DNA of 64,000 nucleotides from Bacilli bacterium (lineage in GTDB: Bacteria; Bacillota_I; Bacilli_A; RF39; UBA660): assembly GCA_016296185.1 (NCBI GenBank), contig JAEDJT010000002.1:4226-68225 (forward strand), in the 5' to 3' direction. Numbering within the stretch: the stretch's first letter is position 1; each line of letters opens with the position of its first letter. The notes beneath the pieces were generated by a model, which was not told the origin of the DNA, did not search any database, and saw only the letters and a program-made list of their open reading frames with translations. Both the position numbers and the translations under genes were made by a program. Below are positions 13,571 to 60,450 of the stretch, in pieces.

Positions 13571-13879
13571 ATGGACTTAAAAGATACATATAGATATTTA
13601 ATTGGTGCATATTTCGGTATTAGAGAAATGGATGAATATTCTTCTAAAGAATATGTATTAAAAGATATTGAAGATTATATTAAAGATTTCTTGTCTGTAA
13701 ATGAAATTGATTTTGATATAGAAAAGGAAAAAGATGATGTTTTAGATAATGTATCTTTAAAGACTAAACTACAAGATGCTTTAATTGTTTTACCAAAAGT
13801 TAATGCCACTTTAGAATTGACTTTATTAGTTAAAGCAAGATTAAAAAGAATTAGAGAAGAAGAATTGGAGGAAATGTAA
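13571..13879 (+). CDS. Hypothetical acidic protein (102 aa)
   Basis: ORF with GGAGG RBS and no recognisable motif. Its stop overlaps the start of the next ORF (TAATG). Confidence 0.4.
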   Translation: MDLKDTYRYLIGAYFGIREMDEYSSKEYVLKDIEDYIKDFLSVNEIDFDIEKEKDDVLDNVSLKTKLQDALIVLPKVNATLELTLLVKARLKRIREEELEEM

Positions 13880-15456
13880 TGGGAAGAGTTGATCCACAAA
13901 AACATGAAGAATTCTTAGCTATGATGAGGGATTATAATATTATTAATCCAATGATTCCTTTTAAAGATTCTTTTTATTTATCTTCTAATATTAATAATAT
14001 GGTTAATATTTATGAACCAAGTAAAGATATATGGATGATTAATTCTAAAGTTGATAATAAAGGTTGTTCTTTATATCAAAAAGTAGTAGATAAATATTTT
14101 TATAGAGGGATTAATCCTGAACTATTTACTGGAAATGTTTTAAAAGTAATGTGCCCTTGTTTAGAATCTGTTCCTAGTGCAGATGGATCTAATAGAGCTT
14201 TAAAATATGCTTATAATTTTTCTTTAATGGCTTTATTAAGTCAAAAGAGTGCTTTTGTTGATAAAGAAAAAATGTTTGATGGAGTTTTACAATTAGATGA
14301 ATTAGCTTTAGCAGATAAAGTTAAAAAAGAAATTGTTGAACTTCGTAATATGCATGGAGATGTTTTAAATAATGGTGTTAATTCTCCTCATTATGATGCT
14401 ATTAATACTAGATTTAAACAAGCTGGTTTAATGATGAATAATAGTTTATTACAAAAGAATAAAGATATGTTTAGTAATATAGTGACTATTATTAGAAATA
14501 TTAAAATAAATATAACTGAAAATAATTTGATACCTGAAAAAGAATTTATGGATTGTTTCGATATTGATAAGTTCTATTTGATATATTGTAAATGTGTAGT
14601 TGATTTTGTTAACTATTTTGATCAAATGAGTAAAAATGCTGATGGTAAAGGTTATGTACATAATTGTTTTGCGTGTTTAGGTCAATATTTATATTTAATA
14701 GATGAATGTTTTAAAGATACTGATTATAATCCTATGATTAAGTATTTTGATTATAAAGAAAATAAATTCAAATTCTATACTATTAGAGATTTAAGAAAAG
14801 AATATGAAAAGATTGAAAGAGAACATAAGGATAATCTTCAAAGAGTGGAATTTAGTGCTGAACAAGCTAAAAAGATGGGGGTAGTTCATAATATTGATGG
14901 TATAACTAATTTACTTAAGGTTACTAGTGAAAAAGATGCTGATATTATTAAAACTGGTTGGGATATTTTAGCTCCTGGTGAAACTGGTTCAAAAGTATCT
15001 AGCAAGAGTAGTGGAACAGTTGGTTCAAAAGCTCCTGCTAAAGTAGTTGAAACTGAAGATATTATTTTTAGAAAAATGGTTTTTGAAAGAACTAATTATG
15101 CTGCTAAAATTGTAGGTAAAGATAGATTTGCTGGCTATATAGGATATATGTATTACAATGGAATTGTTGTGTTTGAAAAATTCTATGATGATGATAAATG
15201 TACTAAACCTGCTCAATCCAATGCAACATATGTTATGAAGATTGATAATTTTACTAAATTTGCTAAAATGAGTAAATCTGAAATAATTGAGTTTATTAAA
15301 AATACTCAAACTGATGAAATTGATAGATTGTATCATAGTAAGAATTGGGAAAATAGATTACCTCGTGTTGTAAGTGGAGTTGAATATAGTCAAGAAGCTC
15401 AAATGATTATTGATACATTAATTGAATCTAATAAAAAGAATAATAAAACATTATAA
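13879..15456 (+). CDS. Hypothetical protein (525 aa), two domains joined by a Ser/Gly/Lys-rich linker
   Basis: Long uninterrupted ORF. Linker APGETGSKVSSKSSGTVGSKAPAK lies at about aa 365-390. The C-terminal module is FAGYIGYMYYNGIVVFEKF...ATYVM...LYHSKNWENRL. No family recognised. Confidence 0.45.
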   Translation: MGRVDPQKHEEFLAMMRDYNIINPMIPFKDSFYLSSNINNMVNIYEPSKDIWMINSKVDNKGCSLYQKVVDKYFYRGINPELFTGNVLKVMCPCLESVPSADGSNRALKYAYNFSLMALLSQKSAFVDKEKMFDGVLQLDELALADKVKKEIVELRNMHGDVLNNGVNSPHYDAINTRFKQAGLMMNNSLLQKNKDMFSNIVTIIRNIKINITENNLIPEKEFMDCFDIDKFYLIYCKCVVDFVNYFDQMSKNADGKGYVHNCFACLGQYLYLIDECFKDTDYNPMIKYFDYKENKFKFYTIRDLRKEYEKIEREHKDNLQRVEFSAEQAKKMGVVHNIDGITNLLKVTSEKDADIIKTGWDILAPGETGSKVSSKSSGTVGSKAPAKVVETEDIIFRKMVFERTNYAAKIVGKDRFAGYIGYMYYNGIVVFEKFYDDDKCTKPAQSNATYVMKIDNFTKFAKMSKSEIIEFIKNTQTDEIDRLYHSKNWENRLPRVVSGVEYSQEAQMIIDTLIESNKKNNKTL

Positions 15457-15470
15457 AAAGGGTTGATAAA

Positions 15471-15941
15471 ATGAATTCATGGCTTAGCTATTTGAAATAT
15501 AAGATATATGAAGATGTTAACACTGTTCTTCAATTGTTATTAATTGATAATAAAATACAAGGAACGAAGTATGATATTAATTATTTAGTTAATTTTATTA
15601 ATGAAAATTTAACTACTATGTCTTTTTTCTTTATTAATGATTCTAGTTTTTTAATAGAAGGAAATCCGTTATCTTTAATTAAGGTAATTAATGATAATTT
15701 AAATGATAATGGAGAGAGAGTAGTTGTACTTGAAAATAATGTAGCTATTAATAAGTGGATTATTAGTGTTTATGAAGACTATGTTAAAGAGTATGATGTC
15801 AAAGAAAAATTAAATATCGAGATTAGTAATCATTTTAATTTTGATAATTCTAAGAAGTTATTGATAATTGGATCAAGAGCTTTCATAAATGAAACTAAGG
15901 ATTCTATTAAGACTTCTTATGATACTTTAGTAGATGAATAA
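15471..15941 (+). CDS. Hypothetical protein (156 aa)
   Basis: ORF 14 nt downstream of the 525-aa gene with a GGGTTGA-type RBS. No recognisable motif. Confidence 0.4.
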   Translation: MNSWLSYLKYKIYEDVNTVLQLLLIDNKIQGTKYDINYLVNFINENLTTMSFFFINDSSFLIEGNPLSLIKVINDNLNDNGERVVVLENNVAINKWIISVYEDYVKEYDVKEKLNIEISNHFNFDNSKKLLIIGSRAFINETKDSIKTSYDTLVDE

Positions 15942-15969
15942 AAAAATAAAAAAAATTTTAAAAATACTA

Positions 15970-15998
15970 TTGACAAGTATAAATTTAAATAGTATACT
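15970..15998 (+). promoter_or_regulatory. Near-consensus sigma-A promoter: TTGACA, 17-nt spacer, TATACT
   Basis: TTGACA at 15970-15975, exact 17-nt spacer, TATACT at 15993-15998. An A-rich UP-like tract (15942-15965) precedes it. No protein gene follows. Confidence 0.6.
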
Positions 15999-16002
15999 AA
16001 GG

Positions 16003-16402
16003 TTACTTAATAGTAATGTAGCATACAGATGATGCAAATATTACATTATTAGTTAGCCCTGTGATATTGATGGTTTCTAATTATCATATCACATTAATAT
16101 TAATAAAGTATCTTAATCAATACTTATTAATGATCGGCTAACATAATAAGTAATGCATCTTTTAGTAAGCAGAATGATAATTAAACAATACTTAAAAGTA
16201 TCGTTAAATTACATTGACTTACATTTTATGATTAATTATTTTTTACTGTTATTGCTAACTTATCAGGCTGTTAAGTGTGTACGTACTCAAATGCCGAATT
16301 TTAAATTGATAAGTGCTTATAGATACTATCGTCAATAGTTGATATAAGTTTAATTAGCTCGGCGAAAAAATATATTGTTTTGACGGACAATATATTTTTT
16401 TT
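16003..16402 (+). ncRNA. Candidate large structured non-coding RNA (about 400 nt), class unknown
   Basis: Bounded by the promoter above and an intrinsic terminator, with no ORF that has an RBS. Nested helices found by hand include GTTAGCC (16052-58) with GGCTAAC (16136-42), enclosing hairpins 16061-16092 and 16099-16131. GCTAA (16254-58) with TTAGC (16354-58) encloses helices 16259-16313 and 16316-16348. Further hairpins lie at 16011-16051 and 16177-16211. Confidence 0.55.
16365..16402 (+). terminator. Intrinsic terminator of the candidate ncRNA
   Basis: Stem AAAAAATATATTGT (16365-16378) pairs with ACAATATATTTTTT (16387-16400), 8-nt loop, T-run to 16402. Confidence 0.7.
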
Positions 16403-16422
16403 GTCTTAAAAATGGATAATAT

Positions 16423-16454
16423 AAAAAGACTAGTTTATTTACTAGTCTTTTTTT
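16423..16454. terminator. Bidirectional hairpin terminator (ends the minus-strand symporter gene; second stop for + strand transcription)
   Basis: GACTAGT (16428-16434) pairs with ACTAGTC (16441-16447). It is flanked by an A-run (16423-27) and a T-run (16448-54) and overlaps the symporter stop codon. Confidence 0.65.
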
Positions 16455-17719
16455 GTTATTTTGTTTTTAACTTTATCGATAATTGTTTCTTTTTTATTCA
16501 TCCAGTCTTTTCCGTCTACAATTCTTGATGTAATCATTGAAGATGCTGTATCACCAGTTACATTTAATAATGTTGCTGCTGGATCAATTATTGTTGCAAT
16601 AATAGTTAAAATAGGTAATGCTGTCATTGGGAAACCCATCATTGTTAATATCATTGTTTCAGATATTGTACCACCACCAACTGGTACAGCTGTAATTAAT
16701 AGAGTAGCTATTAAGGATACTGCTAATACTTTACCAATAGATGGGGTAGTTCCGAATAAGTATACTAAGAACATTATTTTAAATACACTTCCGATTACTG
16801 ATCCATCTTTATGGAATGAAGTTCCTAGTGGAATCATTGTTTCGGCTACATCGTCTGAAACTCCAATTTTTTTAGCACATTTTACATTTACTGGTATAGA
16901 TGCTGCTGATGAACATGTTGAAATAGATGTTGCTGCAGCAGGTAATATATTTGACCAGAATGCTTTTAATCCTTTTTTACCACCAGCTATAAATGCATAT
17001 AATGAATATATTATAAAGAAATAAGCTATTGCTATTACTGTATAATATACAAATGTTTTTAAATATCCAACTGCTATTTCGCTACCGAATGTTCCTACTA
17101 ATGAAGCAAAGTAGCAACCTAATCCAATTGGTGCATATAACATTATTATATCTATAAATTTAAATACAACTTTATTTGCTGCTTCTAATACGTTTAATAG
17201 TGGTTTTCCGTCTTCTCCTGATTTACTTAAAGCGATTCCGAATAGAATAGAGAATACTACTATTGCTAGGATTGAATCTCTTGTAAGTAATAGTGAAAAA
17301 TCTGATACACTAATTGCTTGAATTGTTCTTTCTATAATATTTAATTCAACTGATTCAGCTTCAGTTCCTGCATCTAATACTTCTAGTATTGTAGATGAAT
17401 CTTTTGGATTAATTAACTTAAATGAATAAGTTGATACTAATCCGATTACTGCTGCAATTAATGATACTACTACAAAAGTACCGATAATTGATATCAATAG
17501 TTTTCCTAATCTTTTAGGTTGTTTTATTTTTGCTATTGATGTTGTGATTGTTAAGAATATTAATGGAACTATTATTACAAATAATAAGTTCATAAATAAT
17601 TCTCCGAATGGTGCTAGATAACTAGCTTTTTCTCCCCATATTATTCCTACGACAGCACCTATTATTAGACCTATTACTAATAATATTGTTTGTTTGTAAT
17701 TTGACCATATTTTTTTCAT
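16442..17719 (-). CDS. Dicarboxylate/amino acid:cation symporter (DAACS family)
   Basis: 425 aa polytopic protein. SSAASIPV, GTSFHKDGS and DPAATLLNVTGD motifs are typical of GltP/SstT-type sodium:dicarboxylate symporters. Confidence 0.85.
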   Translation of the reverse strand: MKKIWSNYKQTILLVIGLIIGAVVGIIWGEKASYLAPFGELFMNLLFVIIVPLIFLTITTSIAKIKQPKRLGKLLISIIGTFVVVSLIAAVIGLVSTYSFKLINPKDSSTILEVLDAGTEAESVELNIIERTIQAISVSDFSLLLTRDSILAIVVFSILFGIALSKSGEDGKPLLNVLEAANKVVFKFIDIIMLYAPIGLGCYFASLVGTFGSEIAVGYLKTFVYYTVIAIAYFFIIYSLYAFIAGGKKGLKAFWSNILPAAATSISTCSSAASIPVNVKCAKKIGVSDDVAETMIPLGTSFHKDGSVIGSVFKIMFLVYLFGTTPSIGKVLAVSLIATLLITAVPVGGGTISETMILTMMGFPMTALPILTIIATIIDPAATLLNVTGDTASSMITSRIVDGKDWMNKKETIIDKVKNKITKKD

Positions 17720-20492: not shown

Positions 20493-20547
20493 TTAGTATT
20501 TTTTTGTGTTATAATAGTTGTAGATTAATAGTAAAGGAGTGTGTATT

Positions 20548-20829
20548 ATGGCTACAAAAAGTGATGCTAAAAAAACAACTAAAAAAGCTAGTACAACAAA
20601 AAGTACTGCAACAAAAAGTACTTCATCTAAAAATGTAAGTAAATTTAAAGGAACAAGTAAAACATTTGAAAGATATATGTCTGTTTGTAGATTTATAATT
20701 GTTTTATGTTCTATTCTTTTAGTTTCTAGTATATTCTTTATGGTAGGTTATGGATTTAAAGAAGAAACTGATAAATATCCAGCTGTTATCGTAAAGACTG
20801 TTGAAGAGAGCGCTAATAATGAAGAGTGA
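20548..20829 (+). CDS. Small membrane protein with Lys/Thr/Ser-rich N-terminal tail
   Basis: AAAGGAG RBS. KKTTKKASTTKSTATKSTSSK tail followed by one TM. TGA stop. Confidence 0.45.
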   Translation: MATKSDAKKTTKKASTTKSTATKSTSSKNVSKFKGTSKTFERYMSVCRFIIVLCSILLVSSIFFMVGYGFKEETDKYPAVIVKTVEESANNEE

Positions 20830-25559: not shown

Positions 25560-25588
25560 TTAGCACTCAACCATTGACAAGTGCTAGT
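25560..25588 (+). promoter_or_regulatory. CIRCE-like inverted repeat 1 (imperfect), overlapping the -35 box
   Basis: TTAGCACTC, 11-nt spacer, AGTGCTAGT. The spacer contains TTGACA. Confidence 0.5.
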
Positions 25589-25601
25589 TAAGTGATATAA
25601 T
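25574..25601 (+). promoter_or_regulatory. hrcA operon promoter: TTGACA, 16-nt spacer, TATAAT
   Basis: TTGACA at 25574-25579 and TATAAT at 25596-25601. Confidence 0.65.
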
Positions 25602-25605
25602 TATA

Positions 25606-25632
25606 TTAGCACTTATTTTAAAAGAGTGCTAA
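25606..25632 (+). promoter_or_regulatory. CIRCE operator (HrcA binding site)
   Basis: TTAGCACTT, 9-nt spacer, GAGTGCTAA. One mismatch to the consensus TTAGCACTC-N9-GAGTGCTAA. Located between the -10 box and the hrcA start. Confidence 0.85.
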
Positions 25633-37130: not shown

Positions 37131-37139
37131 GAGGCTAAT

Positions 37140-37364
37140 ATGGAAGAAATGGAATATATTGTTATAGACGGTAAGGAATATAACATAATAAAAGAATTAG
37201 AAACAGAAGGTCGTAAATATGTATTATTAGCTAATAATGATGATGTTAATGATGTATTTGTTAGAAGAGTAACTCATGATGAAGATACTGATTATATTGT
37301 AGGCTTAGATAGTCCTGAAGAGTTTGAAAAAGTGATGGTTCTGTTTATGAAAGAGTTAAGATAA
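37140..37364 (+). CDS. DUF1292 (YrzB-like) small acidic protein
   Basis: 74 aa. The pattern EGRKYVLLANNDD...VFVRRV...DSPEEFEKV is typical of DUF1292. Confidence 0.55.
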   Translation: MEEMEYIVIDGKEYNIIKELETEGRKYVLLANNDDVNDVFVRRVTHDEDTDYIVGLDSPEEFEKVMVLFMKELR

Positions 37365-37426
37365 AAGCGAAAATTTATTCGCTTTTTTATTTTGTGTATG
37401 ATAAACTATATTATGGTGATGCTTAT

Positions 37427-39806: not shown

Positions 39807-40802
39807 ATGAAATTAGATAATATTAAGAAGTATATGTATTTACTTATTTGTATATCATTGTTGGTTTTTATTGTTAAGTATTCTAATTTTGTTAGTATTA
39901 TATCTTGTTTTATTAAAGTATTAATTCCTATTGTTATAGGTTTCTTATATGCGTGGTTTGTTAATCCATTGGTTTGTAAGTTTAAGTTTAGTAGAAGAAT
40001 AAGTTCACTTATTGTATTTTTAATTGTCATATCTATTATTGCTATATTTATGATATTTATTGTTCCAACTTTATATAAAGAAATTAAAAGTTTAGTTATT
40101 ATGTTACCTAAATTTTTAGATTATATAAATGATTTATTAGATAAGTTTAATCTTAGTGAATATATAAGTTTAGATAGTTTTAATATAGATAATATACCTT
40201 TAATTATTTTAAAAAATATTAAAGGAATTATAATTTCTATTAGTAGTATTGTTATTGGTTTAATGATAGGATTATATATGTCTTTAGAATATGACAATAT
40301 TTATAATTTTATTATGAATCGTGTTCGTGATAAAAGTTTAGTTAATGAATTATCTGATAAAGTTAGATGTTGTATTAAAGGTACTTTATTTGTTGCATTT
40401 ATTGTATTTATATTAGATACTGTTTATTTTTATATTATTAAACTAGATGGTGCTTTATTATTAGGTTCACTGTGTGGTTTAACAGATTTAATTCCTTATA
40501 TAGGACCTTATATTGGTGGAACAGTTGCTGTTTTAGTTTCTTTAGGTGAAGGAGGCAAATTGTGGTTATTAACGCTTATTGGTTGTGTTGGTGTTCAAAT
40601 ATTAGAAAATAATATTTTACAACCTTGTATTATAAGTAAAACAACTAAATTAAGTCCTTTATTAGTCATTATTGGTATGACTGTTTTTGGAAAGTTATTT
40701 GGTGTTATAGGTATGATAATTGCAACTCCTTTAGTTTGTATGTTAAGTATTATATTTAAGTATTATTTTTATTCTAAGTACTTTACAAATAGTAAAATAT
40801 AA
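39807..40802 (+). CDS. AI-2E family transporter (PerM/UPF0118)
   Basis: 331 aa polytopic protein. The C-terminal LIPYIGPYIGG...ENNILQPCIISK region is typical of the family. Confidence 0.7.
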   Translation: MKLDNIKKYMYLLICISLLVFIVKYSNFVSIISCFIKVLIPIVIGFLYAWFVNPLVCKFKFSRRISSLIVFLIVISIIAIFMIFIVPTLYKEIKSLVIMLPKFLDYINDLLDKFNLSEYISLDSFNIDNIPLIILKNIKGIIISISSIVIGLMIGLYMSLEYDNIYNFIMNRVRDKSLVNELSDKVRCCIKGTLFVAFIVFILDTVYFYIIKLDGALLLGSLCGLTDLIPYIGPYIGGTVAVLVSLGEGGKLWLLTLIGCVGVQILENNILQPCIISKTTKLSPLLVIIGMTVFGKLFGVIGMIIATPLVCMLSIIFKYYFYSKYFTNSKI

Positions 40803-50483: not shown

Positions 50484-50488
50484 TTTTT

Positions 50489-50707
50489 TTATTGAAAAAA
50501 AATAGGTTTATTACTAGTTATTATTTCTTCTTTTATATTATTATTAATTTTATTTTGTTTTTCATTTATACTTAATTTATTAAAATATTCGTTTGATTTA
50601 TTTATGATTGGTTGTAATTCTCTATATAAAGGTATTATTTTTTTTGCTATATTTATTGATTTTGTTAATCCATCAAGTAGTTTTAATAATGATAGATTAT
50701 TATTCAT
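50489..50707 (-). CDS. Hypothetical small protein (72 aa)
   Basis: ORF with a GGTGG RBS before the ATG at 50707. Asn/Lys-rich, no motif recognised. Confidence 0.3.
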   Translation of the reverse strand: MNNNLSLLKLLDGLTKSINIAKKIIPLYRELQPIINKSNEYFNKLSINEKQNKINNNIKEEIITSNKPIFFQ

Positions 50708-50780
50708 GTTAACCACCAATATATTATATGTTTTTTGATTATTTATTATGATATAATTTTAATGATAGTAGGTGATATAA

Positions 50781-53680: not shown

Positions 53681-53699
53681 ATTGGAAAGGGGAATTAAT

Positions 53700-60164: not shown

Positions 60165-60165
60165 T

Positions 60166-60393
60166 ATGGCAGAAAAAAAAGAAATGACTTTTGAAGAATC
60201 ATTAGTTGAATTAGAAAATATTGTAAAAGAATTAGAAGCAGGAAATGTTGATTTAGATAAGGCTATTGAAAAATATAGTGAAGCTATGAAACTTGCTAAA
60301 ACTTGTAGTGATAAGTTAAATAATGCTACAGAAGCAGTTAATAAAATATTAAAAGAAAATGGTGAATTAGAAGATTTTGAAATTGGAGAATAA
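60166..60393 (+). CDS. xseB: Exodeoxyribonuclease VII small subunit
   Basis: 75 aa. FEESLVELENIVKELE...LDKAIEKYSEAMKL. Immediately follows xseA. Confidence 0.9.
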   Translation: MAEKKEMTFEESLVELENIVKELEAGNVDLDKAIEKYSEAMKLAKTCSDKLNNATEAVNKILKENGELEDFEIGE

Positions 60394-60450
60394 ATCTTCT
60401 TTTTTTATGTTTTTAATGTTATAATAGTTAATATAATATGAGGTGTTGAT

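Follow-up and report, generated by a model that had tools for sequence, protein, structure and literature searches.

The 64,000-nucleotide (nt) stretch of DNA analyzed here (the window; contig JAEDJT010000002.1, positions 4,226 to 68,225 of the forward strand, from a Bacilli bacterium of the RF39 lineage) has a G+C content of about 25%. Its long open reading frames (ORFs) are separated by 52 gaps with a median of 46.5 nt, 41 of them shorter than 100 nt, and the largest gap, at 500 nt (15942-16441), separates a 156-amino-acid (aa) ORF from a convergent gene for a sodium:dicarboxylate symporter (SDF). A preliminary description of the sequence had singled out this gene-free gap of about 500 bp and proposed that it holds an orphan, structured, non-coding transcription unit of about 400 nt, a candidate for a new large non-coding RNA (ncRNA). 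The gap is as described, and the proposal is supported by conservation, by covariation and by the lack of an Rfam match and of a conserved small protein, so that every refuting condition covered here turned out in its favour; we consider it very probable that the unit is a real, conserved, structured and stand-alone ncRNA. Our overall reading, to which we assign a probability of roughly 0.7, is that positions ~16002-16405 (+) form a stand-alone gene for a large structured ncRNA of an uncatalogued family, acting in trans and possibly self-associating. The features that frame this gene, in window coordinates, are:

15471-15941 (+): 156-aa ORF with no Pfam match, left neighbour of the gap
15942-15969 (+): A-rich, UP-element-like tract before the -35 element, from a reading of the sequence; homologous units are also A-rich before TTGAC
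15970-15998 (+): sigma-70-type promoter, TTGACA (15970-75), 17-nt spacer and TATACT (15993-98), an 11/12 match
16002-16405 (+): the whole RNA, ~400 nt, from its deduced start to the terminator T-run
16365-16402 (+): terminator hairpin and T-run, in the order long A-run, stem and T-run; stem 16365-78 with 16388-16402
16423-16452 (no strand assigned): second hairpin, 12 bp, with flanking A and T runs; terminator of the SDF gene, not part of the RNA
16442-17719 (-): SDF symporter gene (PF00375), convergent right neighbour of the gap

The promoter had been called the best in the window. Its elements and its 17-nt spacer are indeed in place, but one site, and only one, outscores it: 25574-25601 (+), a 12/12 match (TTGACA, 16-nt spacer, TATAAT) upstream of an ORF that starts at 25626. 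The strong intrinsic terminator is also present as hairpin and T-run, and its stem covaries among homologues. The second hairpin, previously taken as a back-up terminator of the RNA, does exist but falls outside the covariance-model match and the conserved RNA; it overlaps the symporter stop codon (16442-16444) and is the terminator of the convergent SDF gene. It would work as a bidirectional terminator and provide a second stop for read-through from the RNA gene. The folding of the 402-nt transcript is much stronger than that of shuffled sequences, whichever strand is taken (z = -5.7 for the plus and -7.5 for the minus strand), and the variable part of the transcript alone reaches z = -5.1; because many of the pairs are G-U, the RNA is assigned to the plus strand. 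The idea that a large share of the G/C residues is held in helices did not survive, as the enrichment in the minimum-free-energy (MFE) fold is slight (72.5% of G/C residues paired versus 68% of all bases). A blastn search of the region against the window returned no second copy.

None of the Rfam 15 covariance models matched the region 15900-16500 at its gathering threshold, where matches with E ≤ 10 consisted only of terminator-like noise, and the same models gave 0 matches in 15 homologous loci. The families without a threshold match at the RNA region include OLE, ROOL, GOLLD, raiA, HEARO, 6S, RNase P, tmRNA, SRP and T-box, and ARAGORN reported 0 tRNA or tmRNA genes in the window, in agreement with the earlier observation that signatures of RNase P, tmRNA, SRP and T-box could not be found at this locus. 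Our search of the literature on AI-2E and VanZ riboswitches, RF39 ncRNAs and new ornate RNAs found no description of this RNA. Elsewhere in the window, the sole Rfam match is a T-box leader (RF00230, 53476-53664 (+), 111 bits against a gathering score of 93), which occupies the second-largest gap, upstream of an ORF starting at 53682. Four further gene-free gaps of 260-310 nt (20493-20800, 50484-50780, 60165-60450 and 37131-37393) have no Rfam match at the gathering threshold.

Conservation outside the strain is clear: we found 30 homologous units in at least 14 lineages of uncultured gut Bacilli (records named 'Ca. Coprovivens' or 'uncultured Bacilli/Tenericutes'), the full-length units measuring 337-760 nt and standing in one to three tandem copies. 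Lineages and loci carry L numbers here. Members were sought in loci anchored on the symporter, the anchor with which the genome collection was scanned, or on a 102-104-aa protein, p103, and by pattern scans of sequence collections; the 3' domain was found with nhmmer, blastn and two covariance models, R1 and R2, whose E-values are rough, the models being short-calibrated. The first nhmmer pass matched only the 3' ~170 nt, in three loci and twice in two of these, and compensating helices were visible in a hand alignment of these loci. Of 80 SDF-anchored loci, 11 contain the 3' domain according to model R1, and R2 yielded no extra members in the other 69; the window symporter is at most 71% identical to symporters of uncultured gut Bacilli. 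With p103 as the second anchor (403 homologue clusters), the RNA was recovered in every locus with enough downstream sequence, five strains of the window's species among them (99% identical, from pig gut and other sources). A loose DNA pattern produced 13 chance matches in viral contigs, 0 of them confirmed by a covariance model, and a tighter one gave seven loci in metagenome contigs, of which five are real and close to known members; the pattern locus L094 was rejected as a chance match, and L099 matched neither R1 nor R2. Among the tandem arrangements, L113 (4307-5845) holds three complete units, copies 1 and 2 being near-identical, and its duplicated block contains a copy of the p103-type terminator.

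The conserved extent proved narrower than the preliminary description had assumed, comprising only the first ~25 nt and a 3' domain of ~160 nt, with a hypervariable, hairpin-rich middle between them. In all 28 tabulated units a promoter of the form TTGAC(A/T/G)-17-TAT(A/G)(A/C/T)T is followed, after 3-4 nt, by a 5' sequence that hardly varies, (G/A)UUACUU(A/G)AUAGUAAAG, and this distance is fixed throughout, tandem copies included. In the window RNA the elements of the fold are:

16005-16013 (+): P0 5' strand, ACUUAAUAG, invariant in alignment A4; pairs with 16268-16276
16019-16028 (+): Pc 5' strand, UAGCA (16019-23) and ACAG (16025-28); closes the variable domain; in the MFE fold
16029-16245 (+): variable expansion domain, with no sequence conservation between lineages
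16246-16257 (+): Pc 3' strand, CUGU (16246-49) and UGCUA (16253-57); pairs with the Pc 5' strand in the MFE fold
16259-16266 (+): P1 5' strand, CUUAUCAG; pairs with 16306-16313
16268-16276 (+): P0 3' strand, CUGUUAAGU, inside the P1 loop; pairs with 16005-13
16279-16286 (+): palindrome GUACGUAC, a candidate site of symmetric RNA-RNA dimerization
16292-16297 (+): PK1 5' strand, UGCCGA; pairs with 16359-16364
16306-16313 (+): P1 3' strand, UUGAUAAG; pairs with 16259-66
16315-16349 (+): P2/P2b hairpin, with covariation support
16315-21 with 16343-49 (+): helix P2
16325-29 with 16335-39 (+): helix P2b
16330-16334 (+): P2b loop CGUCA, one kissing partner (CUGUCA in most members)
16359-16364 (+): PK1 3' strand, UCGGCG; pairs with 16292-97
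16381-16385 (+): terminator loop UGACG, the other kissing partner

P1 crosses P0 as well as PK1, and the terminator loop is the pairing partner of the P2b loop; both ends of the RNA therefore join in a core with several pseudoknots, while the hypervariable hairpin domain extends from stem Pc. Predicted without pseudoknots, the MFE structure of the window sequence arrives independently at P0 (9 of 9 pairs), Pc, PK1, P2 and P2b. What the earlier folding by hand had missed is this pseudoknotted core, with the 5' end paired inside the P1 loop, P1 crossed by PK1, and the terminator loop in a kiss with the loop of another hairpin. Two of the helices drawn at that time are nevertheless part of it, the CTTATCA/TGATAAG helix being P1 and the hairpin at 16316-16348 being P2/P2b, and both have covariation support. 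A junction closure by GCTAA/TTAGC, on the other hand, is possible only in the window and in L110 and competes with the covarying Pc and PK1, and the bases of a supposed inner GGC/GCC helix belong to Pc and PK1; neither is retained. The proposed three-way junction of GTTAGCC/GGCTAAC with its two hairpins does appear in the MFE fold, but it lies, with the other hairpins placed at 16030-16245, in the hypervariable expansion domain, where covariation is unable to validate it.

This expansion domain ranges from ~170 to ~600 nt among lineages, with folding z between -1.6 and -11; the upper extreme is L118 (4361-~5110), where a domain of ~600 nt brings the total to ~750 nt. Although these domains cannot be aligned, a hairpin loop AUUGAAAGAUAU or a near variant of it recurs in L005, L009/L120, L008/L116, L013, L042, L096 and L118, and the L110 domain has three hairpins with UUCAAAAGA loops. 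Such recurrent loops may be tertiary-contact or protein-binding motifs. Length also varies at the other end of the molecule: in L123 (4365-~5010) a 3' extension of ~270 nt runs past the kissing hairpin to another terminator.

Covariation backs eight predicted interactions, namely P0, Pc, P1, PK1, P2, P2b, the loop-loop kiss and the terminator stem, and compensatory changes are abundant. In alignment A5 (25 distinct sequences aligned to fit the structural model), paired bases fill 94.1% of cells, and both partners have changed in 27 of 36 pairs. Its covariation score of 0.671 was reached by none of 500 shuffles (0.259), and slid partners scored 0.08-0.15. Changes on both sides occur in five of seven pairs of P1 (with 99.4% of its cells paired), in all seven of P2, in all four of P2b and in nine of 11 of the terminator stem. 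Because A5 leans towards the model, we also compared the energies of cognate and non-cognate strand pairs in 13 lineages, a test that avoids this bias. Cognate strands paired better in 13/13 lineages for P1, P2 and the terminator (p = 1e-4), in 12/13 for PK1 (p = 2e-4) and in 11/13 for Pc (p = 0.0085); P0 and the kiss are near-invariant, and their cognates are still favoured. The individual replacements are telling. PK1 occurs as at least 12 different compensated sequence pairs among lineages (GCCGA/UCGGC in the window, GCGG/CCGC in L003, GUGGA/UCCAC in L110), Pc has sequences as different as GUGGAAG/CUUCUAC, GUAAAAAU/AUUUUUAC and UAGACA/UGUCUA, and even P0 shows a compensatory change to ACUUGAUAG/CUAUCAAGU in L006 and L007. 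The kiss is CUGUCA/UGACAG nearly everywhere and has one G-U pair in L097 (CUGUCA/UGGCAG). Two forms are shortened by one bp on both sides: CGUCA/UGACG, in the window and L110, and CUGCA/UGCAG, in copy 3 of L113.

Between P0 and PK1 lies a perfectly self-complementary sequence of 8-12 nt, where a palindrome of at least 8 nt would be expected by chance in ~3% of 17-mers of that composition. Most members have GUACGUAC, and the variants, GUGUACAC in L042, GUAUGCAUAC and GUAUAUAUAC in L113 and GUGCGCAC in L123, are all self-complementary. The center changes from ACGU to UGCA, UAUA, GUAC or GCGC with self-complementarity kept; these four central bases could not pair inside a hairpin, yet they are symmetric in all variants. 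In two-copy genomes neither copy has a good palindrome, and that of copy a is instead a near-perfect complement of that of copy b: the energy of the a x b duplex in L015 and L022 is -13.2 kcal/mol, against -5.5 to -7.6 for the self-pairs. In L113, by contrast, the self-pairs win (-15.5 and -11.8 versus -7.1), and copy 3 has a palindrome and kissing-loop sequences of its own, distinct from those of copies 1 and 2, and hence a pairing specificity orthogonal to theirs. The palindrome thus covaries in the manner that was attributed to intermolecular pairing alone in OLE and GOLLD, where the argument from palindrome-preserving covariation to intermolecular kissing loops was validated by cryo-EM (PMC12286853). 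We favour dimerization because this type of argument held true in those two cases. The conserved palindrome suggests RNA-RNA dimerization, and we would place self-association through this site at a little under an even chance.

The genes around the RNA raise the question of whether it is a leader. In most loci same-strand genes for a VanZ-like protein (PF04892), for an AI-2E transporter (PF01594), or for both follow 30-60 nt downstream of the element, which closes with a terminator and whose tandem copies resemble tandem riboswitches. A cis-regulatory leader (riboswitch or attenuator) could therefore be envisaged, in which the 3' domain senses a ligand or factor, the terminator gates the VanZ-like and AI-2E genes, and the window copy is an orphan after gene loss. 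We consider this improbable. In all loci with those genes an extended -10 promoter, TGnTATAAT, is predicted between the RNA terminator and VanZ/AI-2E, and each tandem copy (two in L015, L022, L098 and L100, three in L113) is a full unit with its own promoter, copies 1 and 2 of L113 each having a further terminator downstream. The conserved fold includes the terminator loop as a constant element, the homologues revealed no conserved, mutually exclusive terminator/anti-terminator pairing, and the kissing hairpin of L123, which lacks a T-run, is followed by another ~270 nt of RNA; the hairpin is therefore structural. The RNA is also kept in the window, L003 and L110-112, which lack VanZ/AI-2E, and the PK1 helices of the window, L003 and L110 are each differently compensated. 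The gene association may merely mirror the conserved gene order of one clade, as all loci belong to one syntenic block; three lineages do without these genes. By its promoters the RNA appears as a gene of its own and not as a riboswitch, the downstream VanZ/AI-2E genes having their own promoter and being missing in the window, and a riboswitch for VanZ/AI-2E was dropped on the strength of the separate promoters, orphan contexts and autonomous tandem units. Antisense control of the convergent SDF gene was dropped as well, as a strong terminator ends the element and adjacency to SDF is not general. The missing VanZ and orthologous AI-2E genes, together with two extra genes (525 and 156 aa) inserted upstream, could alternatively mark the window copy as a decaying relic of a family that is real elsewhere. 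This is very improbable, given that the promoter, 5' motif, all helices and terminator are intact, that the window-specific kiss (CGUCA/UGACG) and PK1 are compensated, and that the same arrangement is retained in the sister lineages L110 and L003. The five strains of the window's species differ at 0-2 positions of the 160-nt 3' domain, not above the flanking genes, and accelerated decay of the RNA is not seen among these 99%-identical strains, a result that counts against a leader as well. Least credible of all is a small-protein gene or dual-function RNA, with the ATG-initiated 61-codon ORF (16153-16338) or another short ORF as its product. As noted earlier, this ORF has no Shine-Dalgarno (SD) sequence; it is shortened to 56 aa in the 99%-identical strain L104, has no counterpart in the homologues, and in L003, L009 and L120 no ORF reaches 20 aa. 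Cross-matches between ORFs of homologues merely follow the conserved RNA core, in shifting frames, substitutions obey base pairing rather than codons, and across the homologues no ORF is conserved in frame with a ribosome-binding site, so that no conserved small protein is encoded here.

There remains the question of what a trans-acting RNA of this kind might do. CsrB/RsmZ-type RNA sponges come to mind in view of the strong promoter, the several copies and the variable domain with its many hairpins and changing length. In a monomeric regulatory RNA, whether a protein sponge or a base-pairing small RNA, the core would only stabilize the molecule, the variable-domain hairpins would display protein or target sites, and the palindrome would bind a protein or form a hairpin locally. 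The AUUGAAAGAUAU loop or its near variants in the variable domains of seven lineages, and A-rich RAAAGA-type loops in others, fit this idea, but no single loop motif is common to all lineages and no conserved single-stranded seed region is evident. A hairpin, moreover, needs no self-complementary central four bases, yet these are kept through five variants, and the paralogue-specific complementarity in two-copy genomes suits RNA-RNA pairing better. On balance we regard a monomeric regulator as unlikely. The most likely mechanism in our reading is a stable, end-protected, self-associating structural RNA that works in trans. Such an RNA would act as a stable folded particle and not as a leader for its neighbours; with the 5' end buried in P0 and the terminator hairpin built into the fold, both of its ends would be protected. 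The core palindromes of two molecules would pair with each other (those of the two paralogues in two-copy genomes), so that the working unit would be an RNA dimer, and possibly a bigger assembly if the loop-loop kiss also formed between molecules. The particle might serve as a scaffold, a ribonucleoprotein or a container, as is debated for OLE, ROOL and GOLLD. A bolder version, which we hold to be doubtful, is a self-assembling RNA-only particle in which the palindrome joins two molecules (homodimers in one-copy and a:b heterodimers in duplicated genomes) and an intermolecular CUGUCA/UGACAG kiss makes a closed, higher-order assembly that displays the variable domains. If true, it would be the first such assembly from an abundant uncultured lineage of the human and animal gut, and the first natural paralogue-encoded heteromeric RNA quaternary structure.

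Several considerations weigh against the reading of a trans-acting, possibly self-associating RNA. Its ends were deduced from promoter geometry and the terminator, so that transcript ends, like abundance, are sequence-based; the fitting of A5 to the model structure inflates its pairing counts, and the windows of the duplex test were anchored by hand. All members appear to belong to one narrow clade with conserved gene order. The covariation events are therefore fewer than the sequence counts suggest, and function can hardly be read from the gene context. For the palindrome, a short local hairpin or a dimeric protein's binding site would be an alternative; the paralogue complementarity counts as one evolutionary event, L015, L022, L098 and L100 being relatives; and sequence cannot tell whether the kiss forms within or between molecules.

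As to the neighbouring genes, in every locus examined, L101-L124 included, the RNA is preceded on its own strand by the gene for p103 (13571-13879 (+) in the window), an acidic protein. It has no Pfam or PDB sequence match, and its AlphaFold model, a five-helix bundle with a pLDDT of 93, gave no significant Foldseek match and was uninformative; p103 may be a partner of the RNA, or its position may reflect synteny alone. In the window, the interval from p103 to the RNA contains the 525-aa (13879-15456 (+)) and 156-aa (15471-15941 (+)) genes, the former likewise with no Pfam match, and this pair is restricted to the lineages without VanZ/AI-2E, that is, the window species, L003 and L110-112. It looks as if the RNA gene stayed fixed while one flanking gene pair replaced another. 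A distant paralogue of the AI-2E family is present at 39807-40802 (+) in the window; at ~24% identity to the AI-2E genes that follow the RNA in other genomes, it is not the orthologue.

Fewer than 12 classes of large, intricately folded bacterial ncRNA are known, most of them without a function, and three were lately shown to form RNA-only dimers or cages. The RNA described here adds a well-supported class with a compact and tractable core of ~185 nt and an expansion domain that looks dispensable, from an uncultured gut clade that is widespread. The palindrome variants, the complementary paralogue pairs and the kissing loops shortened by one bp on both sides form a natural record of specificity swaps, which makes the RNA quaternary structure directly testable in vitro; a palindrome-breaking substitution would be, for example, GUACGUAC to GUACGAAC. 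A more general lesson is that a terminator-ended element before transporter genes should not be called a riboswitch until the interval between them has been checked for a promoter. Transcription-terminating riboswitches share with this RNA a structured domain and an intrinsic terminator before transporter genes, sometimes in tandem. They differ in that here the RNA and the downstream genes have separate promoters, contexts can be orphan, a conserved switching helix is missing and the fold incorporates the terminator loop.

The preliminary description had likened the unit to OLE, GOLLD, ROOL and raiA. The likeness holds in kind: the RNA exceeds 300 nt (337-760), has eight covarying interactions, including the pseudoknots P1/P0 and P1/PK1 and the loop-loop kiss, and has no coding capacity, with no conserved ORF and no SD sequence. 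It does not extend to homology, as there is no Rfam match, and by its sequence and predicted fold the RNA is a new class at the family level and a member of none of these four. OLE (RF01071) is likewise a lineage-restricted Firmicutes ncRNA of several hundred nt, with many covarying helices and an open biochemical task. It lies, however, inside an operon with the genes of partner proteins, in extremophilic or anaerobic Firmicutes, whereas the window RNA comes with a promoter and a terminator of its own, combines a hypervariable middle with a 5'/3' core that is pseudoknotted, occurs in gut Bacilli, and has no sequence or structure match to OLE. ROOL and GOLLD are often found in prophages or near tRNA genes; the window RNA is smaller (337-760 nt), with no tRNAs, no phage context and no Rfam match. 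The raiA motif is also a stand-alone, terminator-ended, pseudoknotted Firmicutes RNA, and was long taken for a riboswitch owing to a recurrent downstream gene, but its model does not match, its helices are others, and the variable domain and palindrome are features of the window RNA. In phi29 pRNA and the retroviral dimerization initiation site (DIS), complementary or palindromic loops covary, keep their intermolecular pairing and set partner specificity; these are viral RNAs with known roles in packaging and genome dimerization, whereas the window RNA is encoded by a chromosomal bacterial gene. OLE is a symmetric homodimer that includes a kissing loop whose covarying palindrome stays a palindrome, the kissing loops of ROOL and GOLLD were first seen as covarying 'tertiary' contacts and later found to be intermolecular, and ROOL has a poorly conserved internal linker (PMC12286853). 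The window RNA shares with OLE the palindrome-keeping signature, at 16279-86, and with ROOL and GOLLD the combination of a large ornate fold and a kissing-loop contact, both of them predicted from sequence here.

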